From Candidatus Levybacteria bacterium RIFCSPHIGHO2_02_FULL_40_18 (GTDB lineage Bacteria > Patescibacteriota > Microgenomatia > Levybacterales > GWA1-39-11), in the NCBI GenBank assembly GCA_001782235.1, contig MFOC01000007.1, forward strand, positions 315,909 to 379,908: a stretch of DNA of 64,000 nt. The letters are read 5' to 3'. Of this stretch, positions 8,987 through 59,479 are shown one piece after another; position 1 is the stretch's first letter; the number at the start of each line of letters is the position of its first letter. Below the pieces are notes generated by a model. That model did no database searches. It was not told where the DNA came from and was given only the letters and a program-made list of their open reading frames with translations. Position numbers and translations under genes: made by a program.

Positions 8987-9592
8987 TTGTACAATTGCTA
9001 TACTATGCATGTGGAAGGTTTGATTTTTTTTGCCCAAAATTATAACCCCGTTATTGTCGGGGCTCATCTGTTTGGGGTGGTTTTGGGTTTTGGCGCGGCT
9101 TTAATAGGCGACATTTTATTTTTTAAATTCTTAAAAGACTCTAAAATCGAAGAAAAAGAGGTGGATGTCTTAAAAACAATGTCAAAAATTGTCTGGACAG
9201 GACTTTTTATAATTGTTATTTCGGGCGTTTTTTTGTTTTTGTCAGACGTCGAACGTTATTCTCAATCTTCAAAATTTCTTGTAAAGATGATTGTCGTTGG
9301 GATAATTATTCTTAATGGTGGAGTGCTCAATTTGGCTGTCGCGCCGAAACTTACGTCTATCAATTTTAGTGAACCTAGGGGTTCGGGAATTCGGAGCCTT
9401 GCGTTTGCCTGCGGCGCGATTTCAGTAACCTCCTGGTGGACGGCATTTATTTTGGGCTTAATGCACATGTCTCCTGCCCCGTTTCATGTTTTACTTTCAA
9501 TCTATCTATTTATCCTTGCCGGCGCAATACTTATAAGCCAAATTTTAGAGCGGCTTATTTCTACTCATAAAATCAACCCTCCGGTTGTATAA
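8987..9592 (+). CDS. hypothetical integral membrane protein (4 TM)
   Basis: Hydrophobic helices (VIVGAHLFGVVLGFGAALIGDILFF, VWTGLFIIVISGVFLFL, MIVVGIIILNGGVLNL, and others). Start uncertain (ATG at 8987 or 9005). Confidence 0.45.
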   Translation: MYNCYTMHVEGLIFFAQNYNPVIVGAHLFGVVLGFGAALIGDILFFKFLKDSKIEEKEVDVLKTMSKIVWTGLFIIVISGVFLFLSDVERYSQSSKFLVKMIVVGIIILNGGVLNLAVAPKLTSINFSEPRGSGIRSLAFACGAISVTSWWTAFILGLMHMSPAPFHVLLSIYLFILAGAILISQILERLISTHKINPPVV

Positions 9593-9688
9593 TAGACCTA
9601 TGGATTTGACTAAGAAAAAGTGTAAGCCCTGTGAGGGCGGGCTTTCAATCAACGACTTTATCCTGGCCTCAAAAATCGAGCAACTTGA

Positions 9689-10258
9689 TTAATGTCGAAG
9701 CGTTCTAAAGAGTCCAAGCAAAGAGTCAAAAATTTTTCTTTTCTCACTCTCGCCAAGACTTGAACATCTATTGTTATTACTTACCAAATCTAGAATATCT
9801 GTCCCCATTTCTTCTATCTGTTCGACTGGAACAATGGGGGGGTGATGTTTTTCAATTATTGTTATGATGTCCTGATCGATTTCTCTTCCAAAATTCAAAA
9901 TTTTTTCAGAGCTTAAAATTGGTGTTCCAACTGCTAAGGCATAAGCAATCTCCGTACCCGTGCTATGACCGACATAGCCATTGGTAGCAACAACATACAT
10001 AAACCTTGCTCTTTTTATCGCCTCAAGAAAAAGACGTTCAAGCCGTTTTTTCTCGACAAGACCCCCCCCACCCCCTAAAAAAACAAAATTTACATCCAGA
10101 TAAATGGGTTCTGAATCTGGAAGAGGATAAACAGCAAATCCACTATCTGAAAATAAAGCCGAAACGCGTTGCGTCTCCCTAAAATGATCTTCCCGTCGAT
10201 AACTTGAGGCAATAACTATGTCTTTGTCTCTGATGAAAGGGGGAATCTCGACGCTCAT
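9689..10258 (-). CDS. LOG/TIGR00730-like Rossmann-fold protein (putative nucleotide-binding)
   Basis: Motifs in LOG-family order: FVFLGGGGGLVEK (compare GGGxxGLMG) then YVGHSTGTEIAYALAVGTPI (compare PGGxGTxEE). The track ORF (to 10468) overlaps the upstream gene, so the start is set at MSVEIP (10258). Confidence 0.4.
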   Translation of the reverse strand: MSVEIPPFIRDKDIVIASSYRREDHFRETQRVSALFSDSGFAVYPLPDSEPIYLDVNFVFLGGGGGLVEKKRLERLFLEAIKRARFMYVVATNGYVGHSTGTEIAYALAVGTPILSSEKILNFGREIDQDIITIIEKHHPPIVPVEQIEEMGTDILDLVSNNNRCSSLGESEKRKIFDSLLGLFRTLRH

Positions 10259-10361: not shown

Positions 10362-12017
10362 TTACCAGTTTTCCCTGAGGTGATGCATTGCGTATTCGAG
10401 GGAGCCATTGACTTTTTTGCCGCGATTGAAAATATTCTCCGGGTCAAATATTTTTTTGGTTTCTTCAAAAAGTTTGACGATTTTTTCTCCGTACATTTGT
10501 TTAAGATAGGGAGTTCTGATTAATCCGTCGTTATGTTCTCCCGTTGTCGAACCCCTGTATTCTGTAACTATTTTATACACTTTATTTGAAATCTCAGGAA
10601 TTGCGGTTCTAACTCTTGGATTTTTAATATCAACCAATGGAATTATGTGAAAATTGCCGTTTCCAACGTGTCCTGCAACCGTATAAATAAACTCAGGATA
10701 TTGTTTGAGGATGTCCGTAACCCGCGGCAAAACCTCCGAAATATATTCCGGCTTTATTACAAAATCATCTATAAAAGGAGCTGTGTGCTTATCTCGTATT
10801 TTTTTACGAAGCAAATTAAAACTTTCACGGCGGACCAGCCAATATTTTTTTTCCTGCCCTTCCTCGGCAGTTTGGGTGGTAGGGTGAAGCGGCTTTAATT
10901 TCTCGCGTAGCGCTTGAAGTTTGTCTTCAACCTCGCGTCTTTCATTGCTAGTAAAATCAACCTGAAGAACGAGTTTAGGTAGTTTTCTCCCGGTGAATAA
11001 TTCGAAGAATGCCGGCAAAAAAGCAAGTCCTGCCTCAATCATTCCAAAAAGCCCAAGCTGTTTTGCGAATTCGGGGAAATACTTGAGCGCCAATTTTAAT
11101 GTATTGTCATCATATGACTCAAAACTTTCAGGATTAAGTTCGAGAACCGCGTTAATTATTTGCCCAAGATGAGACATGTCATGAAGGTAAATGATTAACA
11201 TTCCACGGTGTTCGTGAACCGGAACAAGTTCAAGATCCCCCTCAAGCATTAGCCCTAATGTTCCTTGTGCGCCAACCCAAAGTTGAGTTAAGTCGAATGC
11301 TTTTTGTTCGCGATCATATACGTTCCAAAGAAAATATCCCGCCGAATTTTTTGACACATCCGGTTTTGCGTTCATAATCTCATCATAGTTATCATTTATT
11401 AGCTTATACATTTTTTGGTAAATTTCTCCTTCAAAATCGTTTTGCGACATTTTTTCTTTTAGTTCTTGTTCGCCAAGTTTTTTAAATTCATAAGTTTTCC
11501 CGTCTGATAGAACCACTTTTACGCGCCTTACATAATTTTCCGTTTTTCCATATTGGAGCGATTTTTCCCCTCCGGAATTATTATTAAATATTCCTCCCAT
11601 TGCACAGATTCCTTTCGATGCCGGATAAGAAGGGAAAATTAAATTGCGTTTTAATGTTTCTGTCTCGAAATCTCGATAAAAAACGCCCGGCTCTGTTGTC
11701 GAAATATTTCCATTTAGAACAGGTGTATGGTTAAAGTATTTACCAAAAGCTACAATAATCGATTCTGAAAGCGCTCCGCCGCTCATGTCAGTCCCCGCGG
11801 CACGCCCTGTGAGTGAAAGGCCGGGATTTTCTTTTTTATGTTTATTAACAAAATTAACTAGAGACTCAACGTCTTCTTGATCGCGAGGAAAAACCACAAC
11901 CTGGGGTTTCACTTCGAACAATGAAGCATCATGACTATATTCTGTAAGTGTCGTTTCGTCAGTTGAAATATCACCTTTTAAAGATTGTTTAAGCTCCTTT
12001 ATAAGATCATTGTTCAT
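10362..12017 (-). CDS. FAD-binding oxidoreductase (FAD-linked oxidase, GlcD/D-lactate dehydrogenase family)
   Basis: N-terminal FAD-binding PCMH-type region (VVFPRDQEDVESLVNFVNK...LTGRAAGTDMSGGAL) and a C-terminal FAD-oxidase domain. Confidence 0.75.
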   Translation of the reverse strand: MNNDLIKELKQSLKGDISTDETTLTEYSHDASLFEVKPQVVVFPRDQEDVESLVNFVNKHKKENPGLSLTGRAAGTDMSGGALSESIIVAFGKYFNHTPVLNGNISTTEPGVFYRDFETETLKRNLIFPSYPASKGICAMGGIFNNNSGGEKSLQYGKTENYVRRVKVVLSDGKTYEFKKLGEQELKEKMSQNDFEGEIYQKMYKLINDNYDEIMNAKPDVSKNSAGYFLWNVYDREQKAFDLTQLWVGAQGTLGLMLEGDLELVPVHEHRGMLIIYLHDMSHLGQIINAVLELNPESFESYDDNTLKLALKYFPEFAKQLGLFGMIEAGLAFLPAFFELFTGRKLPKLVLQVDFTSNERREVEDKLQALREKLKPLHPTTQTAEEGQEKKYWLVRRESFNLLRKKIRDKHTAPFIDDFVIKPEYISEVLPRVTDILKQYPEFIYTVAGHVGNGNFHIIPLVDIKNPRVRTAIPEISNKVYKIVTEYRGSTTGEHNDGLIRTPYLKQMYGEKIVKLFEETKKIFDPENIFNRGKKVNGSLEYAMHHLRENW

Positions 12018-12139
12018 ACAGAAAAAGGAAAGTGGTTATTTGAGATTAGAGAATAGTAATAGAAATTGGAAATTGGAGAATAGCTATTTTTCTATTCCCT
12101 ATTATCTATTTTCCATTACTAATTTTCATTTTCCAATAA

Positions 12140-13129
12140 CTATTTTCTAGATATAGCTTTTTTAACTGCTGCAATTACGGCGTCTTTGTCCATTTTGTAT
12201 TTTTTAATTAATTCGGCAGGTTTTCCCGATTCTCCAAAAGTATTTTGAAGACCAACGAATTCCATCGGGACAGATTTGTTTCGAACAAGAACTTCTGCAA
12301 TTGCACCTCCCAAGCCTCCTGTGATTTGATGGTCTTCTACTGAAACTGCGGTTCCTGCCTTTTGGGTGAGTTCGAGTATTGATTTTTCATCAATTGGTTT
12401 TATTGTTGAAACATTAGCAACAATCACTTCGATTCCTTGGATTGCGAGTTCTTTTGCGGCGAGGAGCGCCTGGTACAAGAGCCAGCCCATGCTAAAGATT
12501 ACTACCTGAGGTTTATTCGAAGTCCAAAAGACTTGAATTCTCCCGGGCTCAAAAGGAGTTTTTTCGGTGGTCATCACAGGGCTTTTGTCTCGAGTAAATC
12601 TTAGATAAACAGGCCCCTTTATTTTTCCTGCTTCAACAGTTGCTTTTTTGGCTTCAATTGCGTCACAGGGTACGAAAATCTTGATATTTGGCCATGCTCG
12701 GACTGACGCAATATCTTCTGTTGCTTGGTGAGTTGCACCATCAGGGCCTGTCATAATCCCCGAATGATGCCCTGCGATTTTAACATTTGAATCGTTATAT
12801 ATAATAGTTGTACGAATTGTTTCCCAATTCTTTCCGGGAGAAAAAGTTGCGTAAGATGAAATAAAGGCGGTTTTTCCTGAAATTCCAAGGCCGGCAGCGA
12901 TAGCGGCCATGTTTTGTTCGGCAACTCCCACTTCAAAAAAGCGGTCTGGGAATTTTTTAGCAAAGTCTTCAGATTTGGTCGACTCTGTTAAATCAGCACA
13001 AAGAACTACAACATTTGGATCTTGTTCGCCCAATTCTACAAGACCCGCGCCGTAGCCGGATCTCGTTGCATCCATCTCAACATCCTTATCAAAAAGTTTA
13101 GGGTTCAGTTTTAAATCAGGATTTAACAT
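12140..13129 (-). CDS. transketolase, C-terminal (pyrimidine-binding) subunit
   Basis: Transketolase Pyr and C-terminal domain motifs (FFEVGVAEQNMAAIAAGL..., GPDGATHQATEDIA). Pairs with the adjacent N-terminal subunit. Confidence 0.85.
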   Translation of the reverse strand: MLNPDLKLNPKLFDKDVEMDATRSGYGAGLVELGEQDPNVVVLCADLTESTKSEDFAKKFPDRFFEVGVAEQNMAAIAAGLGISGKTAFISSYATFSPGKNWETIRTTIIYNDSNVKIAGHHSGIMTGPDGATHQATEDIASVRAWPNIKIFVPCDAIEAKKATVEAGKIKGPVYLRFTRDKSPVMTTEKTPFEPGRIQVFWTSNKPQVVIFSMGWLLYQALLAAKELAIQGIEVIVANVSTIKPIDEKSILELTQKAGTAVSVEDHQITGGLGGAIAEVLVRNKSVPMEFVGLQNTFGESGKPAELIKKYKMDKDAVIAAVKKAISRK

Positions 13130-13133
13130 AATA

Positions 13134-13236
13134 AGAACTCAAAACTTAAAACTCAAAACTCAAATCTACAACTTTAAATCTTAAAACTTTTTAGATTTGA
13201 GATGTAGTTTTGACATTTGACATTTGAGATTTGACA
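13134..13236. repeat. family-B imperfect palindromic heptamer repeat (aaactca/aaactta ... agatttga/catttga) filling the gap between the two transketolase cistrons
   Basis: The left arm (aactcaaaacttaaaactcaaaactcaaatctacaactt) and right arm (agatttgagatgtagttttgacatttgacatttgagatttgac) are roughly reverse complements. Related fragments occur inside tsaE (54603-54650) and the SpoU gene (24781-24817). Confidence 0.75.
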
Positions 13237-13240
13237 TGAA

Positions 13241-14104
13241 TTATTGGTGTTCGCTTATAATCTTACCTTCAAGAGTCCTTAATTCTTTCAGTGCCTTTTT
13301 AGCTTCCTCCTCATTTGGCGGCTTTCCATGCCACTCAAATTTATTTTCCATAAAATCAACACCTTTTCCCGGAATTGTATGGGCAATTATCACAGATGGT
13401 TTTTGGTGAACAGCTTGCGCCTGATTTACTGCCTCGGTAAAGGCTCGGATATTATGTCCATCGACATCCTGCACGAACCAATTAAATGCTTCATATTTTG
13501 AACGTAAAAATTCAAGCGGCATTACGTTTTCCGTATATCCGTCTATTTGAATATTATTCCGGTCAATTATTACTGTTAAATTGTCAAGTTTATTTTTGGC
13601 TGCAAACATGGCTGCTTCCCAAGTATTTCCTTCTTGGTGTTCGCCATCTGACGCAATGCAGTAGACATGATAGTCTTTCTTGTCCAAACGTCCTGCAAGG
13701 GCCATTCCGATTGATTGAGATATTCCTTCACCAAGTGGGCCGGAAGTTGTTTCTACGCCCGGGAGGGCGGATCTATGAGGATGCCCTTGTAAACGCGAAT
13801 TAATTTTTCGCAGAGTTTTAAGTTCGGCGGCAGGGAAATATCCTGCCATTGCCATGGCAACGTAGCGAATAGGACAGATGTGTCCGTTTGATAAGACCAG
13901 ACGGTCACGGTCTGTCCAGAAAGGGTTCTTTGGATCGTGATTTAAAATATGAAAGTAAAAGGCGATAAAAATATCCGCCATTCCCAAAGGCCCTGCAGAG
14001 TGTCCTGATCCTGCCTCAAGTAAAGTTTCGATCACAAGTTCCCGCGCGCGAGTTGCTTTAAGCTCGAGATCTTTTAATTTTTCGTCATGTATTTCTTCTA
14101 ACAT
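13241..14104 (-). CDS. transketolase, N-terminal (thiamine-diphosphate-binding) subunit
   Basis: TPP-binding motifs (GSGHSAGPLGMADIF, GDGEHQEGNTWEAAMFAAK, GHPHR). Confidence 0.85.
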   Translation of the reverse strand: MLEEIHDEKLKDLELKATRARELVIETLLEAGSGHSAGPLGMADIFIAFYFHILNHDPKNPFWTDRDRLVLSNGHICPIRYVAMAMAGYFPAAELKTLRKINSRLQGHPHRSALPGVETTSGPLGEGISQSIGMALAGRLDKKDYHVYCIASDGEHQEGNTWEAAMFAAKNKLDNLTVIIDRNNIQIDGYTENVMPLEFLRSKYEAFNWFVQDVDGHNIRAFTEAVNQAQAVHQKPSVIIAHTIPGKGVDFMENKFEWHGKPPNEEEAKKALKELRTLEGKIISEHQ

Positions 14105-27282: not shown

Positions 27283-28377
27283 TCAGTCGAAGTAGAGGTC
27301 GGGAAGGGCGGTGATTTTGTGCCAGTCGACTGGTTTGTAATTTAGGAGGGCATAGGCGCCGATCATGGCGGCATTGTCTGTAGCGTAAGTTTTTGCAGGA
27401 GCGGAAATCTTAGCCGTTGGCAGTTGGCTTTTGGCTGTTAGCTCGAACTGTTGGCGGAGGGTTTGGTTTGCGGATACGCCGCCACCAAGAAGAATATTGT
27501 TAATTTTGTACAATTTTGCTGCTCGAATAGTTTTTTTGATCAACACAGCAAAAATTGCCTCTTGTAAAGCATGGCAAACCTCATTAATTAACCTTTCGGT
27601 TAAATGTTTTTTAACAATAAATCTTGATATTTCAGTCTTTAGTCCTGAAAACGAAAAATCAAAATCCTCGGTATTAATTAATGGACTATGAAATTTGGCT
27701 GTTGGTTGTTGGTTGTTAGCTCGGCGCTCGATTTCGGGACCGGCCGGATAAGATAGGCCAAGAATTCGGCCGACTTTGTCGAGTGCTTCTCCTGCCGCGT
27801 CGTCTCGAGTCCCGCCAAGCCATTTGAATTTAGATGCTGATTCGAACAACAACAAATCAGTATGGCCTCCGGAGACAATAAGGCCGATGAAGGGGAACAT
27901 TTTTCCAGTATTCAGTATTGAGTATTCAGTATTGAGTATAAAATTAGCAAAGAGGTGTGCGAGGAGATGATGAACGGGAATTATTGGCTTGTCGAATGCA
28001 AAAGATAGGGTTTTTGCTGTTTCGACTCCAACGAGAAGTGAACCTATTAAACCGGGGCCACTGGTGACGGCAATGGCGTCGATAGACTTTTTAAGTATTT
28101 CATTTGCTCGTTCGAACTGTTTCGAATTGTTCAATTGTTTGATTGCTTCATTGTTGATCCCTTCGGAATTAAGAAGTGCGCGGACAATAACCGGAATTAT
28201 TGCTTTGATTTGTTCGCGGGCTGCGAATTCCGGAATTATTCCGCCAGTTTTGGCATGGAGACTTGAAGAGGTGGCGGTAACATTTGATAAAACCCTTACG
28301 AATTGTTCGTTGTCTTTTTTTTCAACTACAGCCGCCCCCGTTTCATCACAGCTAGTCTCAAGACTTAGTATTATCAT
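27283..28377 (-). CDS. tsaD: tRNA N6-adenosine threonylcarbamoyltransferase
   Basis: MIILSLETSCDETGAAVV, HHLLAH, SGGHT and DFSFSGLKT, all Kae1/TsaD hallmarks. The start is taken at MIILSL; the track ORF extends further upstream. Confidence 0.88.
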   Translation of the reverse strand: MIILSLETSCDETGAAVVEKKDNEQFVRVLSNVTATSSSLHAKTGGIIPEFAAREQIKAIIPVIVRALLNSEGINNEAIKQLNNSKQFERANEILKKSIDAIAVTSGPGLIGSLLVGVETAKTLSFAFDKPIIPVHHLLAHLFANFILNTEYSILNTGKMFPFIGLIVSGGHTDLLLFESASKFKWLGGTRDDAAGEALDKVGRILGLSYPAGPEIERRANNQQPTAKFHSPLINTEDFDFSFSGLKTEISRFIVKKHLTERLINEVCHALQEAIFAVLIKKTIRAAKLYKINNILLGGGVSANQTLRQQFELTAKSQLPTAKISAPAKTYATDNAAMIGAYALLNYKPVDWHKITALPDLYFD

Positions 28378-28610
28378 AAATTGTTTCGCCTGCCCCGTAT
28401 AAGCGTCCTCGCGACGCGAGGACGAAGACCTCGGGAGTAAGTAAGCTTTGTGCGGGGTCACAAGAGGTCTCAATAGCCAAAACTCTCATTGAAATAAAGA
28501 AATTGGTTGTAAGAAATTGGAAAATGGTTATGGAAACTAGATATTGGAAATTGGTTTGTTTTAAAAAACTATTTTCTATTTTCCTATAACTATTTTCTAT
28601 CTTCTCTTTG

Positions 28611-29551: not shown

Positions 29552-29584
29552 ATTCTTAAAGTCCTAAATTCTAATATCTAAATC

Positions 29585-29735
29585 ATAGTTAATAAGAAAT
29601 TGGTTGTTGGAAATAAGAAAATGGTAATAGAAATTAGATATTAGAAATTGGTTTTTATTTATTTTTATTTAACTATTGTCTATTTTCTACTTTCCATTAC
29701 TAATTTCCATTTTCCTATAACTATTTTCTAATATA
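29585..29735. repeat. family-A palindromic heptamer-periodic intergenic repeat (~150 bp), copy A3; near-identical inverted copy at 46495-46650, shorter variants at 12030-12150 and 28487-28612
   Basis: The reverse complement of 46502-46648 aligns almost base for base with 29592-29733. Shared blocks are tagaaattgg, aaaatggtaatagaaa, ccattactaatttccattttcc and ataactattttcta. Confidence 0.85.
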
Positions 29736-37554: not shown

Positions 37555-37593
37555 AACGAGATATAATTTAGTGATTAGGATTAAAGGATTAAA

Positions 37594-37878
37594 GTGATTA
37601 GTAATTATAAGGAGTTACTCTTTTGGCAAAGGGCTCATCAGGTCATATTGTTAGTGATAAAATTATGTAAAAATCTACCTAAGGATGGGATTTCGGTAAT
37701 TTTAATTAATCAAGTAATAAGAGCAGCGGGTTCAGTGGGGGCAAATATTGCTGAAGGCTTCGGAAGATATAAGGGGAAAGAGTATAAACGTTTTATTCAA
37801 ATCGCTTTAGGATCGGCGAACGAGACAGAATACTGGCTACTAGTAATTTCCGAAAGAAAATTAAACAACAAGCAATAA
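37594..37878 (+). CDS. four-helix-bundle protein (TIGR02436 / 23S rRNA IVS-protein family)
   Basis: ELLFWQRAHQVILLVIKL...VIRAAGSVGANIAEGFGRYKGKEYKRFIQIALGSANETEYWL. Confidence 0.7.
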   Translation: MISNYKELLFWQRAHQVILLVIKLCKNLPKDGISVILINQVIRAAGSVGANIAEGFGRYKGKEYKRFIQIALGSANETEYWLLVISERKLNNKQ

Positions 37879-37919
37879 CTAATCATTTTAGTCTTTTAGT
37901 CTTTTAATCTTAAACAATT

Positions 37920-39182
37920 ATGCTTGATATTAAGTTTATTCGGGAGAATCCGGATAAAGTTCGTGAAGGGGCAAAAAATAAAAATATCAATGTTCCGATT
38001 GATGAAATACTTCGTCTAGACCAAGAACATCGCGAATTGTCTCGGATACTCCAAGAATTGTATACCCAAAGAAACCGCGCCGCAAAAGAAAGAGATATTG
38101 AAGGCGGTCGGGAGGTTAAAGCAGAGGTTGATTCTAGCGAAGATAAACTTGGGAAAATCAAAGAAAGATTGGATGAACTTCTTTATGCCGTACCAAATTT
38201 GCCGGCCCTTGATGTAAAAATAGGAAAAGACGAATCGGAAAATGAGATTATTCGAAAAGTTGGTTCGCCGAAAAAGTTTTCATTCAAAGTTCGTGACCAT
38301 GTTGAGTTGGGAGAATTGCTTGAAATTATCGACCTTGAACGAGCAGCAAAAGTTTCCGGTACCCGATTCGCATATTTAAAAAATGAAGGAGTTCTTCTTG
38401 AATTCGCACTCGCCCAATTTGCCTTAGACAGCTTAATAAAGGAAGGATTTATTCCGATAATTCCGCCCGTGCTTATTAAGACGGAAACAATGAAAAAGGT
38501 CGGTTATATGGAACACGGTGGGGATGAGGACATGTTTCATATCGAAAAAGATGGTTTGACCCTCGTGGGAACTGCCGAGCATTCAATCGTCGCAATGCAT
38601 CAAGACGAAACATTTTTGGAACGTGATCTACCTGTAAGATATGTCGGGTTTTCATCTGCCTTCAGGCGTGAAGCGGGATCTTACGGCAAAGACACTCGGG
38701 GAATTCTTCGCGTCCACCAATTTGATAAAGTAGAAATGGTTTCATATACGACTCCTGAAAAGAGCGATAGTGAACAAGACTATCTTTTGAATATTGAAGA
38801 GAAGTTTTTTCAGGCGCTCAAGATCCCTTATCAAGTTGTCAAAATGTGTACAGCCGATTTAGGATTTGTTCAGGCCAAAAAATATGATATTGAAGCATGG
38901 ATTCCGTCTCAAGAGAAATATCGAGAGATGACCTCCGCATCGCATCTTACAGATTTTCAAGCAAGACGGTTGAATATTAAATTCCTGCCTGCCGGCAGGC
39001 AAGGCCAAAAAGGTTTGGAAAAAGAATTCATACACACTCTCAACGCCACAGGTTTTGCAATTGGCCGAACTTTAATTGCAATTCTTGAAAATTATCAAGA
39101 AAAGGATGGTTCAGTTGTTGTACCAGAAATTTTGCGAAATTACGTAAATATAGATAAGATTTCACCAAAGAAATTAAAATAG
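37920..39182 (+). CDS. serS: serine--tRNA ligase
   Basis: N-terminal coiled-coil arm and the class II core (FRREAGSYGKDTRGILRVHQFDKVE). Confidence 0.9.
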   Translation: MLDIKFIRENPDKVREGAKNKNINVPIDEILRLDQEHRELSRILQELYTQRNRAAKERDIEGGREVKAEVDSSEDKLGKIKERLDELLYAVPNLPALDVKIGKDESENEIIRKVGSPKKFSFKVRDHVELGELLEIIDLERAAKVSGTRFAYLKNEGVLLEFALAQFALDSLIKEGFIPIIPPVLIKTETMKKVGYMEHGGDEDMFHIEKDGLTLVGTAEHSIVAMHQDETFLERDLPVRYVGFSSAFRREAGSYGKDTRGILRVHQFDKVEMVSYTTPEKSDSEQDYLLNIEEKFFQALKIPYQVVKMCTADLGFVQAKKYDIEAWIPSQEKYREMTSASHLTDFQARRLNIKFLPAGRQGQKGLEKEFIHTLNATGFAIGRTLIAILENYQEKDGSVVVPEILRNYVNIDKISPKKLK

Positions 39183-39579
39183 TTAAAATGGTTGGAATAG
39201 TTGAATGGTTTTGATAGCCATGTAACCATGTAGCTATTTTAGCCATTGGCTCTTTTGATTTTTGTTGATTTATCAGTCTAAACCTTAATTTTCGAAGCAG
39301 GCAATTTTCTTGACAAAATTTTTTATTTTTTTCACGATTAAATTGGAGCATAATAAGTTCTAGTTTGAGATACTGTTTGGTCCGCCAGACCTTACTTTAG
39401 GGCTTTTCAGTATTATTCATACACGCCCTAAAGAGCGGTCTTCGGCGGACGTAAGAAACTGTAAACTCACTTTACAGTTCGTTAACAGTTTCTAACGGAG
39501 GTGATATTTTCATGGCAAGAAAAAAAGCAAAGAGAAGGAAGAGGAGATAAAATAAATTCCAAAGAATGATCATCTTTTG

Positions 39580-44804: not shown

Positions 44805-45677
44805 ATGGATTCTTCAGGACACTATAGAAAGCTTGCGGATAAGTGGATCAAGCGGCACCGTGATTTTCAGGAACAGTTGTGGGCTTCGCACGGAGATGCA
44901 ATAAATGACTTTATAAACAGCACAAAAAATTTTGCCATTGGGTCAATCTCGGGGCTAATGCTTTTATCAAGTCCAGCCGCAAATTTAATTGGGCCAGTCA
45001 GTGCGCTGACGGTCGAAGAACAAAAATTACCCGTAGATAAAAGCGCTTTTTTGGCCTCAGATGTTCTTTCTGTTTTGCCAAAGGAGGTTCGTCCATTAAC
45101 GCCGGAAGAAGAAAATTCCATTTCTCAGATTTTTACTCGGGATTTTGGGTTTAAAGTCGCACATGAACTTTCAGGTATTCGATTGAATCGATCATATGGT
45201 TATATAGGGGCCGAGCAGCATCTGGCGCGATATCCCGGTGACACAATGACTACTCATTTCGAGGATAGTTCGGATAGTTCAAAATTCTATTCGTCCGGAA
45301 TGGCACCGGGACTGGGTGCCTGGGGTTATTTTGCAAATTCTCGTTCGGAATTAACCCAAAAAGACATAGATCGTGAGAAATATTATATTGCCGTTCAAAC
45401 ATTTCTTGCTCCGGGATTCGCGGAGCACACGGGAAAATACATTACTTTTTTTAAATTTCGGAAAATGCTTGTAGTGAATCCTCATACCGGGCGTGCTATA
45501 GTAGTGGTGATAGGTGATGCCGGACCCGCTGAATGGACTGGAAAGAGTTTGGGCGGGTCGCCCGAGGTTATGAAGTATCTTGAGCGTGTTGACGGTAGCG
45601 GGAGAGGGCCGGTTCTGTATTTTTTTATAGACGATCCAGAAGACAAGGTTCCACTGGGACCAATCGAAATTAAATAG
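44805..45677 (+). CDS. hypothetical protein with possible RlpA-like double-psi beta-barrel domain
   Basis: The C-terminal segment LVVNPHTGRAIVVVIGDAGPAEWTGKSLGGSPEVMKYL resembles the DPBB pattern V.V.N..NGR.V.V.V.DRGP. Confidence 0.35.
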   Translation: MDSSGHYRKLADKWIKRHRDFQEQLWASHGDAINDFINSTKNFAIGSISGLMLLSSPAANLIGPVSALTVEEQKLPVDKSAFLASDVLSVLPKEVRPLTPEEENSISQIFTRDFGFKVAHELSGIRLNRSYGYIGAEQHLARYPGDTMTTHFEDSSDSSKFYSSGMAPGLGAWGYFANSRSELTQKDIDREKYYIAVQTFLAPGFAEHTGKYITFFKFRKMLVVNPHTGRAIVVVIGDAGPAEWTGKSLGGSPEVMKYLERVDGSGRGPVLYFFIDDPEDKVPLGPIEIK

Positions 45678-45740
45678 TTAAAATGGTTAAAATAGTTAGA
45701 ATAGTTCAAAACCATGTAGCCATTTAACTATTTAGCTATT
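45672..45740. repeat. family-C repeat (aaatagttaaaatggtt ... aaccatgtagccat ... aactatttagctatt), copy C2; other copies 39178-39250, 50536-50625, 52268-52312, 59403-59478
   Basis: Five copies, each starting at or overlapping the stop codon of a + strand gene. Some contain an in-frame ATGGCTAAATGG. Confidence 0.8.
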
Positions 45741-45749
45741 GATTACTCT

Positions 45750-46079
45750 ATGATTAAACACTTTTATTCATATCATGTTGAGATTGACTCGCTAATTATT
45801 GAAATCGAGTCCCTTCCAATCGAGGAACACGAAAAGAGACATCTAGTTGAACTTGCAGAATCTCAAGTTCACAATGCCATTTTGGATTCGATTCTTTCAG
45901 AATTAATTACGGAAGATAAGAGATTATTTCTTAAGCATTTAAATTCTAAAAATCATGAAATAATTTGGAAATTTTTAAGATCAAAAGTAAAAGATATTGA
46001 AGAAAAAATTGAAGGCGTCGCGCTTTCCGTTAAAAAAGAATTATATAGAGACATAAGAGAAATTAAGGGACAATCTTAA
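45750..46079 (+). CDS. hypothetical protein
   Basis: 109-aa ORF, helical and charged. Confidence 0.35.
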   Translation: MIKHFYSYHVEIDSLIIEIESLPIEEHEKRHLVELAESQVHNAILDSILSELITEDKRLFLKHLNSKNHEIIWKFLRSKVKDIEEKIEGVALSVKKELYRDIREIKGQS

Positions 46080-46464: not shown

Positions 46465-46684
46465 ATTCAAATTCCTAAATTCTAAAAAATATATCAATAT
46501 ATTATTAGAAAATAGTTACAGGAAAATGGAAATTAGTAATAGAAAGTAGAAAATAGAAAGTAGTTAAATAAAAATAAATAAAAACCAATTTCTAATATCT
46601 AATTTCTATTACCATTTTCTTATTTCCAACAACCAATTTCTTATTGACAGAATTTTGATATTCGAATTTAGGATTTAAAATAGT

Positions 46685-47950
46685 ATGCTGAAGAAACTTA
46701 AAAAACTTCTATCGTTGCTGGGGCCGGGATTCATTACCGGCGCATCGGATGATGACCCATCGGGAATTGCAACATATGCCCAAACTGGCGCACAATTCGG
46801 ATATTCCCAGCTTTGGACCGCACCTTTCTCTTTTCCCTTCATGACGGCAATTCAAGAGATGTGTGGAAGAATAGGGCTCGTAACAGGAAAGGGGCTTTCG
46901 GGCGTTATCAAAAAATATTATTCAAGGCCCGTTCTCTACATTGCTGTTTTAATTCTTTTTACCGCGAACACTGTGAATATAGGGGCAAATCTTGGGGCAA
47001 TGGCAAGCGCGGCTGGTTTATTATTCGACATACCTTTTATTTTCTGGCTTGTGGGAATGACCGTTTTAACTTTAATTCTTGAAGTTTTTGTATCATATAA
47101 ACTTTATTCAAAATACCTAAAGTATCTTGCGTTCTCACTTTTTGCATATGTGCTGGTGGTGTTTGTAGTAAGACAGAATTGGGAGCAAATAATAGCTTCA
47201 ACAATTGTCCCAAGTTTCGCTCTAAGTGGTAGTTATCTACTTAATATTGTTGCAATTTTGGGAACTACAATTTCTCCATATCTTTTTTTCTGGCAAGAGA
47301 CAGAGGAGGTTGAGGAGGAAGTCGAAAAAGGTAAGATCATGGGGATTGGGCGAGGTATACCAAAAGTATTAAAAAGAGACATTAGAATCATGAGAATAGA
47401 CACGGTTATCGGAATGTTTTTCTCGAATCTTGTAATGTTCTTTATTATCGCGACTGTCGCATCAACCCTTTATGCTTCAGGGATCCATAATATAAACACG
47501 GCCGATCAAGTGGCCGAAGCACTCAGACCATTAGCAGGAGATTTTGCCTATCTGCTTTTTGCGGCAGGAATAATTGGGACCGGTCTTCTTTCTGTTCCAA
47601 TCCTGGCAGGTTCGGCGTCATATGCGCTAGCCGAAGCTCTTGGGTGGCGCGAAGGATTGTATCGAAAGTTAAAACAGGCTCATGGATTTTATGGTGCAAT
47701 AACTATTGCAACGCTGATTGGCTTACTTGTGAATTTTTTGCATATACCGCCATTTCAAATGCTTTATTACACAGCCGTACTCAACGGGATCGCCGCTCCG
47801 CCGCTTATTATTCTTATTTTATTAATCTCAAACAACAAAAAAATCATGGGCGGACGCACCAATTCGACACTTTCGAATGCATTGGGAATAACAATAACTG
47901 CAGTTATGTCTTTCGCCGCATTAGCCCTCCTCTTTGATCTCATTTTTTGA
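46685..47950 (+). CDS. mntH: NRAMP-family divalent metal (Mn2+/Fe2+) transporter
   Basis: NRAMP signature LGPGFITGASDDDPSGIATY and 11-12 predicted TM helices. Confidence 0.82.
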   Translation: MLKKLKKLLSLLGPGFITGASDDDPSGIATYAQTGAQFGYSQLWTAPFSFPFMTAIQEMCGRIGLVTGKGLSGVIKKYYSRPVLYIAVLILFTANTVNIGANLGAMASAAGLLFDIPFIFWLVGMTVLTLILEVFVSYKLYSKYLKYLAFSLFAYVLVVFVVRQNWEQIIASTIVPSFALSGSYLLNIVAILGTTISPYLFFWQETEEVEEEVEKGKIMGIGRGIPKVLKRDIRIMRIDTVIGMFFSNLVMFFIIATVASTLYASGIHNINTADQVAEALRPLAGDFAYLLFAAGIIGTGLLSVPILAGSASYALAEALGWREGLYRKLKQAHGFYGAITIATLIGLLVNFLHIPPFQMLYYTAVLNGIAAPPLIILILLISNNKKIMGGRTNSTLSNALGITITAVMSFAALALLFDLIF

Positions 47951-48049
47951 TAGACTCCGTTAGAGACTTGAGAAAAATAATTTTTATAAATTATTTTTCT
48001 ACTTAGTAGTTGCGCTATGCGTCTCTAACGGGGTAAAATTAGCTTTGCT

Positions 48050-50123: not shown

Positions 50124-50540
50124 ATGACTGCTTCCAAAAGCACACCTTCTAAAGTCCCGATAATTTTGTTTTTAATCCTTGCGGTTTTAGGTATAGGAAC
50201 GGGTTTTTTACTTTCCCAAACTCAGAATGCCTCCTTGGTTGGCGGGCCTTCTTCACCGCTGTCAAAAGTCGCAGGTCCGCAAAAAGGTCAGACTTTTGGA
50301 TCAAAAGATGAAAAAACTTTCAAAGACAGTGCGGAAGGAACTCTTCGTGAAGGAGGCATAGATGGCGAGGGCGCATACCATCTTGAAAGACCGGGCGGAG
50401 AATCTCAAAATGTATATCTTACGTCATCGGTGCTCGATTTGTCCCAGTTTATAAGTAAAAAAGTGAAAGTCTGGGGGGAGACACATGCAGCCGAGAAGGC
50501 TGGTTGGCTGATGGACGTAGGCCGACTCCAGGTTTTATAG
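50124..50540 (+). CDS. hypothetical secreted/membrane-anchored protein
   Basis: Start chosen at MTASK, giving an N-terminal anchor (VPIILFLILAVLGIGTGFLL). The track ORF begins at 49977. Confidence 0.4.
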   Translation: MTASKSTPSKVPIILFLILAVLGIGTGFLLSQTQNASLVGGPSSPLSKVAGPQKGQTFGSKDEKTFKDSAEGTLREGGIDGEGAYHLERPGGESQNVYLTSSVLDLSQFISKKVKVWGETHAAEKAGWLMDVGRLQVL

Positions 50541-50629
50541 CTAAATAGTTAGAATAGCTAAATGGCTACATGGTTTTATTTTTATGTTCAGCTATTTAAC
50601 CATTCAACTATTTTAGCTATTTTTATTCG

Positions 50630-51418: not shown

Positions 51419-52271
51419 TACTGTTTCAAAATATGTTAGAAGGTCGCCGTATCAGGCACTTTCTGCAGCTCTTATCATGAGCCTGACTTTCTTTGCGATT
51501 ACTATCTTTTCTATTCTTACAATTCTTTCAATTCGTTTTATCTCCTATTTTGAAACACGACCTCAGCTCACCGTCTTTTTTAAAGATTCGGCAAGTCGGG
51601 ATGAGATCCGAGGGCTTGAAAATAAACTTTCAGATACCGGTAGAACTTCTTCCATTACGTATGTTTCAAAAGAAGAGGCCCTTGCCATATACAAAGAGCA
51701 AAATAAAAAAGATCCGATTCTACTTGACTTGGTTACCGCAGATATTCTCCCGGCCTCAATAGAGGTTCAGGCAACACAAGCAGAATACCTTGCAGACCTT
51801 GCGGGAATCGTGCGTGGTTCCCCATTAGTTGAAGAAGTTGTCTTTCAGAAAGATATTGTCGACACGCTGATCTCTTGGACAAATGCCGCAAGAAGACTTG
51901 GAATAGCCATTATTGCTATTCTTGTCACTGTTTCAGTGTTAGTCATAATTACAATAATTGGAATAAAGATTACCGTAAGGCGTGAAGAGATAGAGACAAT
52001 GAAGCTTTTGGGCGCGACAAATTGGTTTATTAGGGCACCATTTCTTTTGGAAGGGGCATTTTACGGATTTGTAGGTTCTCTTGCCGGTGGGGGTCTGGCA
52101 ATAGCCTTATTTTATTACTTCTCGCCGTCTTTTGAAGCGTTCCTGCGAGGAGTTGCCATTTTTCCGATCTCGCCGGTCATGATGCTTGAGCTTCTTGCAA
52201 TTGAGACGATTGTTGCCTGCCTCTTAGGAATGTTCGCAAGTTACATGGCAGTACTACGATACTTAAAATAA
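51411..52271 (+). CDS. ftsX: cell division permease FtsX
   Basis: Four-TM FtsX topology with a large periplasmic loop. Overlaps ftsE by 8 nt. Confidence 0.82.
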   Translation: MISTVSKYVRRSPYQALSAALIMSLTFFAITIFSILTILSIRFISYFETRPQLTVFFKDSASRDEIRGLENKLSDTGRTSSITYVSKEEALAIYKEQNKKDPILLDLVTADILPASIEVQATQAEYLADLAGIVRGSPLVEEVVFQKDIVDTLISWTNAARRLGIAIIAILVTVSVLVIITIIGIKITVRREEIETMKLLGATNWFIRAPFLLEGAFYGFVGSLAGGGLAIALFYYFSPSFEAFLRGVAIFPISPVMMLELLAIETIVACLLGMFASYMAVLRYLK

Positions 52272-52278
52272 ATACTCA

Positions 52279-53544
52279 ATGGCTAAATGGTTACATGGTT
52301 ACATAGTTAGATCATCTTTCGCAATTCTCGTTCTGTTTCTTTCTTTATTCTTAGGCAGGATTGTTTTTGCACAAACGGTAACGCCATCCCCAACGCTTTC
52401 ACCTACGCCAACTCCGGAATCGAATTCTTCGTCAAATGTCTGTACTGGCGTTCAGGAATGTGCCGATCAAAAATTAGATTGCTCAAAGTGTATAGAATAT
52501 TTAACAAACAAGAAGAATGAGGCTTCGGGCAAAGCAAAAACTCTCTCGTCGGAAATCGCCGTAACAAATAACCAAATTAAATTAACTGAGGCAAGAATAA
52601 GAGCAACCGAACAGAAAATAAAAGAGCTTCAGAAAGACATAGGCATTGCAAAAGGAAAGATAGAGGAGCTTGAAAGCACGATAGATAGGGCAACAAGACT
52701 CTTGATTGAAAGAATTGCCGCCGTATATCAGGTGGGAAGAATTGAGCCTTGGCAAATATTCTTGACCGCAAGGAATATTGATGATGTTTTTTCAAGACTT
52801 AAGTATCTTCGTTTAGTTCAAATTTATGATAAGAGACAAGTTTATGCAGCGGAACAGGCAAAAACTGACTATGCAAACCAAAAAGAAATTTTTGAGGACA
52901 AAGAAGGCGAGGCAAAAAGCCTAAGTGCAAAACTCGAAGGTTATAATCAACAACTTGAAACAGAAAAAGCCGGAAAGCAAGAATTGCTGAATATAACCCG
53001 GAATGATGAGGCAAGATATCAAAGATTCTTAGCCCAAGCAAGAGCTGAGCGAGCAATAATCCAGGGTGGGGGGACGGAGGTATTTTTGCGGAATGTTAAT
53101 GTAGGCGATTCGGTCGGAACAATAATTTCAGGTAGATCCGGTTGTTCCACGGGTACACATGTTCACTTCAGTGTTTATCAAGGAACTTCTCCGCGCGATC
53201 CAAGCGATTTCCTCTCATCAAAGGGGGTTTCCTACTCGTATCCCGAGTCGCAGTATGGATATTATGGCACTGTAAATCCGCATGGAAGTTATCCATGGCC
53301 TCTTGACGACCCAATTCAAGTTAATCAGGGATATGGTTCGCATGGGTTTGCTCAGCAGTTTTATCCAAGTGGGTTTCATGACGGGATTGATATGGAGGGC
53401 GGAAGTCTTAATGTTAAGGCAGTCCGCGCTGGCAAGCTTTATGAAGGAAGTTACGGCGGCTGTAGTTATGGTCCCCTGACTTACGCAAAAGTTGAGCACG
53501 ATGATGGATTGATAACTTGGTATCTTCACATAACTCCCCACTAG
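52279..53544 (+). CDS. M23-family peptidoglycan metalloendopeptidase with N-terminal coiled coil (EnvC-like)
   Basis: Signal/TM segment, ~200 aa of coiled coil, then an M23 (LytM) domain (GCSTGTHVHFSVYQG ... HDGIDMEGG ... YLHIT). Sits directly after ftsEX. Confidence 0.8.
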   Translation: MAKWLHGYIVRSSFAILVLFLSLFLGRIVFAQTVTPSPTLSPTPTPESNSSSNVCTGVQECADQKLDCSKCIEYLTNKKNEASGKAKTLSSEIAVTNNQIKLTEARIRATEQKIKELQKDIGIAKGKIEELESTIDRATRLLIERIAAVYQVGRIEPWQIFLTARNIDDVFSRLKYLRLVQIYDKRQVYAAEQAKTDYANQKEIFEDKEGEAKSLSAKLEGYNQQLETEKAGKQELLNITRNDEARYQRFLAQARAERAIIQGGGTEVFLRNVNVGDSVGTIISGRSGCSTGTHVHFSVYQGTSPRDPSDFLSSKGVSYSYPESQYGYYGTVNPHGSYPWPLDDPIQVNQGYGSHGFAQQFYPSGFHDGIDMEGGSLNVKAVRAGKLYEGSYGGCSYGPLTYAKVEHDDGLITWYLHITPH

Positions 53545-53592
53545 AAATAGTATCTAGATATTAGATACTAGATATTAGATAATAGGTGCGAA

Positions 53593-55475: not shown

Positions 55476-55787
55476 GTGAATAAATTATATATTGATACAA
55501 GAGATAATAACCGGATTGTCGTTCGGTTAAATAAAAATGGAGAGGTATTCCAAGAAATATCGGTAGCAAGCAAAAATAAAGCTCAGATAACACTTCCTTT
55601 GATCGAGGAAGTTTTAAACAAGGCGAAACTTACGATTAGCGATATTGACAAAATTGATGTGGAAACAGGGCCGGGGTCTTTTACCGGGCTGCGGGTAGGA
55701 ATCTCGATTGCCAACGCACTGTCCTTCACAGGATTAGTCCGAATCAACGGCAAAAAACTCGGCGAGGTTGAAATACCCCAATACTAA
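55476..55787 (+). CDS. tsaB: TsaB-like protein, short form (N-terminal YeaZ domain only)
   Basis: LYIDTRDNNRIVVRL ... VETGPGSFTGLRVGISIANALSF matches the TsaB/YeaZ N-terminal half. Only 103 aa, against ~230 aa in E. coli. Confidence 0.7.
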   Translation: MNKLYIDTRDNNRIVVRLNKNGEVFQEISVASKNKAQITLPLIEEVLNKAKLTISDIDKIDVETGPGSFTGLRVGISIANALSFTGLVRINGKKLGEVEIPQY

Positions 55788-55929
55788 AAGTTTGGGTTTT
55801 GGTTTGTGTTTGGGCTGCTAGTATAGTCATGGTTTGGGTCTTGGGTTAAATTACCAAAAACCAAACCCTCTTACCATACGAGCTGCTCCACCCATACCCT
55901 TAAACTATAACTTTTGATATGATAAAACT

Positions 55930-58394: not shown

Positions 58395-59408
58395 ATGAGA
58401 TTGTTAGTCACCGGTGGAGCTGGATTTATCGGTTCGAATTTTATTCTTTATTGGTTAAAAAACCATCCAGAAGATGAAATTGTAAACTTTGATAAGCTAA
58501 CTTATGCAGGAAACCTTGAGAACTTAAAAAGTATCGAGGGCACTCCGAATTATAAGTTTGTAAAAGGTGATATTGCAAATGCGGATGATGTCGCGGCAGT
58601 AATTCTCGGGATTGATATTGTTGTTCATTTTGCCGCAGAAAGTCATGTTGACCGTTCAATTCATGATTCTGCCCCATTCATCATGACAAACGTCGCCGGG
58701 ACTCAAATTCTCCTTGACGCTGCGCTTAAAAATAATGTTAAAAGGTTCCACCATGTCAGTACGGATGAGGTTTTTGGATCACTAGAATTGAACGATCCGA
58801 ACAAATTTAATGAACGAACAAATTATAACCCCAGAAGTCCTTATTCGGCAAGTAAAGCCGGTTCGGATCATTTGGTTAGTGCTTATTATTATACATACAA
58901 TCTTCCGATTACAATTACAAACTGCTCAAACAATTTCGGTCCGTATCAGTTCCCTGAAAAAATTATTCCTCTTGCAATCACTAATCTTCTTGAAGGAAAA
59001 AAAGTTCCAATATACGGAGATGGTTTGTATGTTCGCGATTGGCTTTATGTGGAGGATCATGTAAAGGCAATCGAAGCGGTTCTTGACAAAGGAAAAATCG
59101 GCGAAACTTATCTTATAGGTGGCATGACAGAAGATATTCCTAACATTGAAGTTGCCAAAAAAATTGTTCGCATTTTAGGAAAATCGGAAGGTGATATTGA
59201 ATTTGTTAAGGATCGTCCCGGACATGACAGGCGTTATGCTATTGATTGGTCAAAAATTAAAAACGAGTTAGGCTGGAAGCCACTCCATGATTTTGACACG
59301 TGGCTTAAGAAAACAGTAGAGTGGTATAAAGAGAATGAAGATTGGTGGAGAGAGGTAAAGAGCGGTGAATATCAGAAGTACTATGAAAAACAGTACAATA
59401 ATAAATAG
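58395..59408 (+). CDS. rfbB: dTDP-glucose 4,6-dehydratase
   Basis: LVTGGAGFIGSNF Rossmann motif, YSASKAGSDHL catalytic YxxxK and HVSTDEVFG. Confidence 0.88.
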   Translation: MRLLVTGGAGFIGSNFILYWLKNHPEDEIVNFDKLTYAGNLENLKSIEGTPNYKFVKGDIANADDVAAVILGIDIVVHFAAESHVDRSIHDSAPFIMTNVAGTQILLDAALKNNVKRFHHVSTDEVFGSLELNDPNKFNERTNYNPRSPYSASKAGSDHLVSAYYYTYNLPITITNCSNNFGPYQFPEKIIPLAITNLLEGKKVPIYGDGLYVRDWLYVEDHVKAIEAVLDKGKIGETYLIGGMTEDIPNIEVAKKIVRILGKSEGDIEFVKDRPGHDRRYAIDWSKIKNELGWKPLHDFDTWLKKTVEWYKENEDWWREVKSGEYQKYYEKQYNNK

Positions 59409-59479
59409 CTATATAGCTTAAATGGTTAAAATAGTTTTAAAACTATTTAGCTATTCAACTATTTAGCTATTTTTATATT

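Follow-up and report, generated by a model that had tools for sequence, protein, structure and literature searches.

Unit-built hairpin repeats at gene boundaries of a Candidatus Levybacteria genome and their relation to stop and start codons

Can a short repeat that begins at the stop codon of one gene, and sometimes carries the start codon of the next, remodel the ends of the genes between which it lies? This question is raised by a 64-kb stretch of the genome of Candidatus Levybacteria bacterium RIFCSPHIGHO2_02_FULL_40_18 (contig MFOC01000007.1, positions 315,909 to 379,908; hereafter the window), in which an initial annotation had described five copies of a repeat, family C, at gene 3' ends and had credited it with both terminating and initiating reading frames. 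The window has a GC content of 39%, and its nearest protein relatives are annotated as Candidatus Levybacteria (Microgenomates, Candidate Phyla Radiation). We scanned all 64 kb for clusters of at least three units matching ATRGYT or ARCYAT, identified the neighbouring genes from the table of open reading frames (ORFs) and Pfam scans, and compared the junctions with syntenic loci from six related genomes (L003, L004, L163, L164, L165 and L174), which were reached through homologues of the M23 peptidase beside one of the copies. By per-gene identities, the window strain, L003 and L004 are about equally related (~80% amino-acid identity), and L165, L163 and L164 are further off. L166 and L167 are further sequence of the window strain, and L002 differs from the window at the L002 contig end only. 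The comparison supports the view that the junctions were re-engineered in layout and the upstream protein ends kept, with the stop triplet changed at most.

The scan yields exactly five clusters (39179-39246, 45674-45739, 50537-50620, 52279-52308 and 59405-59470), so the five copies do exist where they had been placed; the three-unit pattern has 14 matches, against none in 100 dinucleotide-preserving shuffles. What the copies share is not the three strings that had been quoted as common to all of them but a degenerate unit: the hexamer ATRGYT, which recurs at intervals of 8-9 nt, and after it the complement, ARCYAT. Four full copies of 65-85 nt consist of 4-5 forward units, a short loop and 4 mirrored units, and fold as single long AU-rich hairpins in the + strand (mRNA-sense) RNA, with a folding free energy (dG) of -16.4 to -28.6 kcal/mol and z-scores of -3.8 to -5.7. 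The claim that all copies are palindromic holds for these four; the remaining copy is a left half with forward units only (n=4) and has no fold (z +0.4). All family C copies are intergenic, four hairpins and one half copy in the 64 kb and a sixth just outside, and within the genome they are 60-77% alike. Rfam at its gathering threshold gave no match except one tRNA, and at E<=1 only a chance miRNA-hairpin match, whose 26 bits fall short of the gathering score of 90.

The neighbours of the copies are serS, a 290-aa ORF, ftsE, ftsX, the M23 peptidase, rfbB and rfbD, and all five copies lie on the + strand. Copy 1 (C1, 39176-39256) is a full hairpin directly 3' of serS (dG -26.6, z -4.1); the serS TAG (39180-39182) falls within its first unit, a U-rich tail follows the hairpin, and secA lies 555 nt further on. 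Copy 2 (C2, 45668-45746; 4 forward and 4 mirrored units; dG -16.4, z -3.8) holds the TAG of the 290-aa ORF (45675-45677) within its stem, and the following ATG, at 45750, opens a 109-aa ORF. Copy 3 (C3, 50537-50620; dG -28.6, z -5.5) separates a 161/187-aa ORF, whose TAG is at 50538-50540, from ftsE, whose ATG at 50630 comes after a ~10-nt tail (50621-50629, TTTTTATTCG). Copy 4 (C4, 52279-52308) is the left half, between ftsX and the M23 peptidase. Copy 5 (C5, 59405-59470; dG -23.8, z -5.7) lies between rfbB and rfbD, with a TAG at 59406-59408, a U-rich tail at 59471-59479 and the rfbD ATG at 59480. The copy outside the window (C6, L167 15407-15472) follows a TGA stop that lies 2 nt before its first unit. 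In C2, C3 and C5 the 5' strand of the stem holds the UAG at a depth of 1-8 nt, and the AUG comes 3-14 nt past the closing pair. A U-run follows C1, C3, C5 and the L004 orthologue of C3; C2 and C6 have a weak one or none.

The initial annotation had held that in every case the upstream stop is the first triplet of the element. At four copies a TAG does lie within the first unit (at 39180, 45675, 50538 and 59406), and the stop triplet is thus TAG at four of the six full or half copies (C1, C2, C3 and C5). The ftsX stop does not fit: its TAA (52269-52271) sits 7 nt before the first unit and is identical in relatives without the repeat, and is therefore not part of the element. Since C6 follows its TGA at a short distance, the rule of stop overlap is not absolute. 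As judged from the aligned sequences, the first unit is best described as coinciding with, or supplying, the stop triplet only, so that the overlap would not amount to remodelling of the protein.

Filled and empty versions of the same junctions bear directly on this point. At the C2 junction, which holds family C in the window, L003 is empty with an ATGA gene overlap, L164 has an unrelated 57-nt spacer, and L004 carries another hairpin family that contains a PF05635 gene; the upstream protein ends in GPIEIK in both the window and L164. Orthologous copies of C3 are found in the window and L004, L003 is empty (TGATG), and L163, L164, L165 and L174 are without family C. Here the upstream C-terminus is GRLQVL in the window, L003 and L004, and L163 and L165 already have a TAG stop at the matching position. 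The tail of C3 in the window, TTTTTATTCG, has its match in TTTTTATTGGG, the native spacer of L163, so that the tail is native and not part of the element. At the C5 junction the window and L003 have orthologous copies, and L163 and L164 are empty with an ATGA overlap; L004 has TAATG there, but its rfbD is non-orthologous (38% identity). The final Lys of rfbB is conserved and present in L163 and L164, serS ends in K-TAG also in L168, a more distant Levybacterium without the element, and ftsX ends in RYLK-TAA in all genomes compared. Because element-free orthologues end in the same residues, remodelling has not touched the upstream proteins. On the downstream side, the N-termini at C2 (MIKH), C3 (MIEFKDV) and C5 (MKIALTG) are likewise native. 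What differs is the layout: a filled junction runs from TAG through the hairpin and a 3-14-nt tail to ATG, whereas an empty one has overlapping stop and start codons (ATGA, TGATG or TAATG).

The M23 peptidase at C4 is the case in which the initial annotation was right about a start codon. Units are present at this junction in the window, L004 and L174, and L163, L164, L165 and L127 show a TAATG overlap. In these four relatives without units the M23 N-terminus reads MRN, MRH or MRF, with MRF and MRN beginning through the TAATG; the units encode MAKWLHGYIV in the window, MVKWLNSYIA in L004 and MVEWLYGL in L174. Similar N-termini occur in the homologues P0005, P0006, P0016, P0023 and P0056, and a unit-encoded N-terminus is found in at least seven homologues. 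The ATG at 52279 is the sole canonical in-frame start ahead of the hydrophobic core of the M23 signal peptide. Of the proteins at these junctions, the M23 peptidase is the only one in which repeat units replace the native start and about the first ten residues. The alignment of termini with orthologues that had been suggested as a check was run, and it divides the claim: upstream ends are identical without the element, and the M23 N-terminus has been replaced. The remodelling interpretation is thus partly supported, correct for the M23 start and the layout of the junctions and not for the upstream C-termini or the downstream N-termini at C2, C3 and C5.

Are the elements maintained once they are in place? 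Orthologous copies are identical at 80/107 positions (75%) for C3, 58/75 (77%) for C5 and 44/49 (90%) for C4, against 196/411 (48%) of the fourfold sites in flanking genes between the window and L004, and 80/187 (43%) between the window and L003 (binomial p 1e-8 to 1e-9). The arms of C3 differ by ~2 substitutions between orthologues (~97% identical), and seven neighbouring codons differ at 6/21 nt; the C3 stem is invariant between the window and L004. For the C5 pair, RNAalifold gives 22 pairs with 2 compensatory changes (A-U to G-C and U-A to C-G), 2 changes that preserve pairing as G-U wobbles, and 0 broken pairs. Variation among units is confined to the R and Y positions, even in the half copy C4, which forms no hairpin. 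Purifying selection is the best-supported reading of these comparisons, and family C copies would accordingly be selectively maintained.

The way in which genes are expressed in this genome is relevant to what such an element could do. Almost no Shine-Dalgarno motif is found upstream of 58 genes, and genes either overlap their upstream neighbour or carry a TATAAT-like box whose end is 6-8 nt away from the ATG, a spacing that suggests widespread leaderless mRNAs. Boxes of this kind near an ATG are seen, for example, at 23427, 34122, 35519, 42625, 55930 and 57185. A reading in terms of sigma-70 promoters or canonical terminators found no support, the counts being no higher than in shuffles. Genomes of the Candidate Phyla Radiation are very small, with densely packed genes, and to our knowledge little has been established about gene expression in this group.

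Based on these findings, we propose that family C is a lineage-restricted mRNA stem-loop of a small clade of Candidatus Levybacteria, similar to repetitive extragenic palindromic (REP) sequences and miniature inverted-repeat transposable elements (MITEs), which serves to define 3' ends or to separate cistrons; we favour this reading tentatively, at somewhat less than an even chance. Copies would have been acquired at co-directional junctions that, to judge from filled and empty sites, were once translationally coupled by abutting or overlapping stop and start codons. The element would be transcribed with the upstream gene and would fold into a long imperfect AU-rich stem, with the UAG in its 5' base and a short, mostly U-rich tail after its 3' base, followed by the next AUG. 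The stem-loop could then act as a weak intrinsic terminator, as a barrier to 3' exonucleases or as a processing site, and genes that were formerly coupled may thereby be split into separately controlled units. Since the stop lies inside the stem, a terminating ribosome would have to melt the lower half of the hairpin, which would make the effect dependent on whether the upstream gene is translated. Decayed copies could be captured as coding sequence, as 52279-52308 may have been, where the M23 peptidase takes its start codon and the n-region of its signal peptide from the units.

Several observations weigh against this proposal. The family C stems are rich in AU and contain mismatches, in contrast to a canonical GC-rich terminator at 9581-9694 of the same window; promoter and terminator counts equal the shuffle expectation, and a consensus terminator scan does not flag the family C stems. 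Termination between rfbB and rfbD or before ftsE would need a downstream promoter, and only weak -10-like boxes (TATTTT, -12 to -7) are found there. The balance of G-U pairs against A-C mismatches does not favour sense RNA (20 vs 13 in family C, 8 vs 20 in the sister hairpin family A), the covariation comes from one sequence pair, and the C3 arms keep their primary sequence more closely than pairing needs, which would also fit protein binding or gene conversion. Pfam scans of ~40 window proteins reveal no transposase or RAYT gene in the 64 kb.

The overlap with stop codons extends beyond family C. At least eight families of unit-built repeats, with a layout like that of family C, occur in the window-strain sequence (the window, L166 and L167), L003 and L004, and many begin directly at a TAG stop, for example TAGAAAGTAG..., TAGTATTCAGTAT..., TAGTGACTAGGGACTAG... 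and TAGAAATAGTATCTAG.... TAG ends the upstream gene at 13 of the 22 junctions that hold a unit-built hairpin, against 27 of 114 other genes (Fisher p 0.0017). Junctions were classified automatically for this count, and two orthologous pairs as well as a few false positives are among them. Hairpins outside family C were surveyed by folding the intergenic gaps, and one junction proved especially informative. After a 103-aa TsaD-like ORF (the TsaD'-CAP junction), four different hairpin families occupy the same place in the window (55785-55915, + strand, GTTTGGG/CCAAACC units), L003 (12870-13030), L004 (13646-13706) and L005 (13660-13763). The stop triplet varies with the family, and the stops and the letters after them read TAA-AAGTTTGGG, TAG-AAAGTAG, TAG-TATTCAGTAT and TAA-GTTAAAAAT; behind each hairpin come a U-run and, 6 nt ahead of the ATG, a conserved -10 box, TGnTATGAT. 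Identity between L004 and L005 is otherwise 99.85-99.98%, and the segment in which they differ starts 5 nt before the stop and ends just before the U-run and -10 box. The swap therefore includes the stop triplet, which thus tends to belong to the exchangeable segment, and leaves the protein sequence essentially untouched. Four families at one junction suggest that some hairpin, rather than a particular sequence, is kept there.

How far do other explanations account for the same data? Family C may be a selfish or neutral palindrome of the MITE or REP type with no host function, which, in a genome almost devoid of spacers, survives only at junctions, so that its overlap with stops and starts reflects survivorship. 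Its left end is rich in stops (TAG, plus TAA in the +1 frame, in the first unit), which would make insertion at a gene end harmless; copies occur at junctions only and are patchy among close relatives, and families are swapped between near-identical strains. Recent copying is evident in the sister family A, where the copies at 29588-29733 and 46503-46648 show 97% identity along 146 nt and are oriented alike with respect to their genes, with weaker similarity running on to the downstream ATG. Repeat units are also read in frame within the TsaD coding sequence, and many PF05635 homologues sit on ~1-kb contigs, as expected of assembly-breaking repeats. We nevertheless regard a purely selfish repeat as unlikely: orthologous copies are far more conserved than fourfold sites, the modest likeness among family C copies speaks against a recent burst, and the Pfam scans gave no transposase in the 64 kb. 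A target-site duplication is not clearly definable from filled and empty junctions either; a TA...TA duplication fits C3 but at C5 would imply that rfbB and rfbD were fused before insertion, and the boundaries of the element are ambiguous because TA is present in every unit. A different view takes the hairpin as a bridge, a stem that juxtaposes UAG and AUG so that ribosomes re-initiate across it and coupling is kept despite a 70-90-nt insertion. The overlapping, coupled gene pairs at empty sites, the scarcity of Shine-Dalgarno motifs, the constraint on the elements and the position of UAG in the 5' stem base with AUG 3-14 nt past the 3' base (C2, C3 and C5) would all suit such a bridge. The argument is purely geometric, however, and insertion into a spacerless junction gives the same geometry trivially; C1 has no adjacent downstream gene, and the stops lie outside the stem in C6 and several family A copies. 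We consider this view very doubtful, and slightly less so the broader one that the repeats are exchangeable gene-boundary modules suited to a genome without Shine-Dalgarno sites, each with its own stop, stem and tail, which bridge translational coupling by their hairpins and whose families are interchangeable at one junction, even between strains 99.9% identical; this remains rather unlikely in our judgement.

The length of the stem, a ~30-bp imperfect duplex, also recalls substrates of RNase III-type processing such as the intervening sequences (IVSs) of rRNA, in which case cleavage of the duplex would separate the cistrons and the copies with PF05635 genes would be the cargo-bearing form. 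Unit-built inverted repeats do enclose PF05635 genes (window 37572-37916, L004 3955-4396, and also in L168, L171 and L173), and ORF-less hairpins of L004 share CAGTAT/GAGTAT units with the arms of the L004 cassette. Set against this, none of the PF05635 cassettes found at these loci has arms of family C, the cargo-bearing relatives using other unit families, and the window encodes RNase Y; our analysis makes a dedicated processing stem quite improbable. Finally, the units could form an array on DNA for a binding protein, resembling transposon ends, iterons or centromere-like sites (direct and then inverted repeats of a 6-bp motif every 8-9 bp), or serve in RNA as the target of a UAG-repeat-binding protein. 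The ~97% conservation of the primary sequence of the C3 arms, which exceeds what pairing needs, the restriction of variation to R and Y positions even in the half copy C4, and the existence of tandem-only TAG arrays that lack a mirrored arm are in keeping with protein binding. Yet we know of no candidate binding protein, the copies lie strictly at gene 3' ends in the transcribed orientation, and the compensatory changes in C5 point to pairing, so that a binding array is hard to credit.

Family C has several known counterparts. REP and BIME sequences of Enterobacteria and Pseudomonas are species-specific imperfect extragenic palindromes found at gene 3' ends and within operons; REPs are 20-40 nt long, GC-rich and linked to a RAYT (IS200/IS605-like Y1) transposase. 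Liang, Rudd and Deutscher are said to have proposed in 2015 that REPs have roles in mRNA stabilisation, in termination and, when near a stop codon, in translation. Family C resembles them as a short, imperfect, extragenic palindrome that is transcribed and present in multiple copies, but it is 65-85 nt long and AU-rich, its arms are built of tandem 8-9-nt units, the stop normally lies within the stem, and no RAYT accompanies it among the window proteins scanned with Pfam. The Correia or NEMIS elements of Neisseria are co-transcribed, bounded by inverted repeats and patchy between strains; they have TA(TAG)-type ends, and their long hairpins are RNase III substrates. Correia copies are numerous and near identical, with 26-nt terminal inverted repeats and a TA duplication. 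The arms of family C are likewise mirror images, that is, terminal inverted repeats, whereas its copies are far from identical, its arms are unit-built, it has no definable target duplication, and a near-identical pair is found only in family A. Ralph and McClelland reportedly described in 1993 intervening sequences of 23S rRNA with a PF05635 ORF. The long terminal-repeat stem with or without a PF05635 gene (beside serS and at the L004 C2 junction) is alike here, but the host is an mRNA junction and not rRNA, and family C itself has no ORF.

The MIRU elements (mycobacterial interspersed repetitive units) lie between the genes of polycistronic operons with their ends overlapping the flanking stop and start codons (Supply et al. 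1997, as summarised in PMC3184786), and are direct repeats with a small ORF that keeps translational coupling. Family C likewise lies between operon genes and overlaps gene ends, but a bridging ORF exists in the window only at C3, where it ends in ATGA at ftsE. A MIRU-like bridging ORF was rejected, as it is not conserved in the L004 orthologue of C3, which stops after 5 codons. Neisseria REP2 and Borrelia IR repeats lie immediately upstream of genes and bring an ATG together with a fixed promoter and ribosome-binding site (PMC3184786); C4 similarly brings the ATG of the M23 peptidase, with the difference that only one decayed half copy does so. TIGR arrays have a 36-nt period, edge and loop repeats, variable spacers and an adjoining Nop-domain Tas gene (PMC12045711). 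This identity was rejected for family C, which has a period of 8-9 nt and single scattered copies, and Pfam scans of the window contain no Tas gene.

Repeats that overlap the termini of operon genes (MIRU), repeats that donate an ATG and hairpin repeats in mRNA are thus already known. What is unusual here is the combination of arms made of tandem units, several families anchored at TAG, replacement of one family by another at fixed junctions between near-identical strains, and a Candidate Phyla Radiation genome poor in Shine-Dalgarno motifs. We found no description of such repeats in the Candidate Phyla Radiation or Patescibacteria in the literature. A Levybacteria lineage thus tolerates and conserves structured repeats of 70-150 nt at boundaries where its relatives have overlapping stop and start codons. 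This makes testable how internal cistrons are transcribed and translated, whether AU-rich hairpins serve as terminators or processing sites, and how such modules spread and replace one another. For annotation, it means that stops, starts and signal-peptide N-termini beside these repeats can be repeat-derived.

Other unit-built repeats of the window are arranged in a similar way. Family A forms four hairpins, at 12015-12149, 28486-28599 and 29583-29733 on the - strand and at 46495-46648 on the + strand. The first, of GAAAATAG / GAAATTGG units, contains the TAG of the transketolase C-terminal half (12140-12142), and the last is nested in a second inverted repeat (46465-46485 / 46661-46681). A family B hairpin of TCAAAAC units (13136-13234, - strand) lies between the halves of the same transketolase, which is split into N- and C-terminal genes (12140-14104), with the family B hairpin between them and a family A hairpin after the second. 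A TAG-rich tandem array without a mirrored arm (53542-53585, + strand) begins with the TAG stop of the M23 peptidase. Similar TAG- or TAA-containing arrays are seen at L004 7709-7750, L166 455-492 and L166 2583-2607, and these mirror-less arrays start at or just after the stops of the M23 peptidase, prfA, an L36-like small ORF and rplR.

The PF05635 cassette of the window (37572-37916, + strand) lies between a Ham1-like gene and serS. Inverted repeats of GATTAAAG units (37572-37606 / 37874-37916) surround a PF05635 gene (37594-37878), and the serS ATG is 4 nt beyond the right arm. PF05635 denotes the 23S rRNA IVS protein, a four-helix bundle, and the window gene encodes 94 aa against ~120 usually. 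The serS-linked gene is syntenic, with complementary arms, in L168 (1440-1930), L171 (1440-1950) and L173 (1440-1930). A recent mobile insertion is ruled out for this cassette by its synteny across Microgenomates, and the arrangement is old. The paralogue located exactly at the C2 junction of L004 (3955-4396; 121 aa, 37% identical to the window copy) is lineage-specific; its arms (3955-3991 / 4360-4396) are 37-nt inverted repeats of CAGTAT/GAGTAT units, and the upstream TAG lies in the first unit. ORF-less hairpins of the same units are found at L004 13245-13347 and 13642-13729 and, between secY and adk, at L166 4829-4897. Most close PF05635 homologues (P0121-P0240) are on the ~1-kb contigs mentioned above, which suggests that these genes lie in assembly-breaking repeats.

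CAGTAT/GAGTAT units also appear inside a gene, TsaD (Kae1), in which two stretches of the window stand out (27906-27940 and 28358-28489). Five of the units are read in frame there (ILNTEYSILNTG), and near the 5' end of TsaD there is a second MRVLAIETSCD start, followed by ~90 nt of GC-rich hairpin-like sequence before ETSCDETG resumes; this ~90-nt insert could be an intervening element or a duplication. Upstream of prfA, a ~90-nt hairpin, CCGTTAGAG...CTCTAACGG, occurs at 47950-48045 of the window and at L004 6608-6705 and is ~95% conserved between the two, and a related hairpin lies upstream of rplQ (L166 9010-9092). Of additional note, the ribosomal-protein operon of the window strain has a short hairpin, GGGGCCCCCATTTTGC.TCGCCAAAATGGGG, repeated between its genes (L166 3070-3110, 5440-5480 and 6575-6612).

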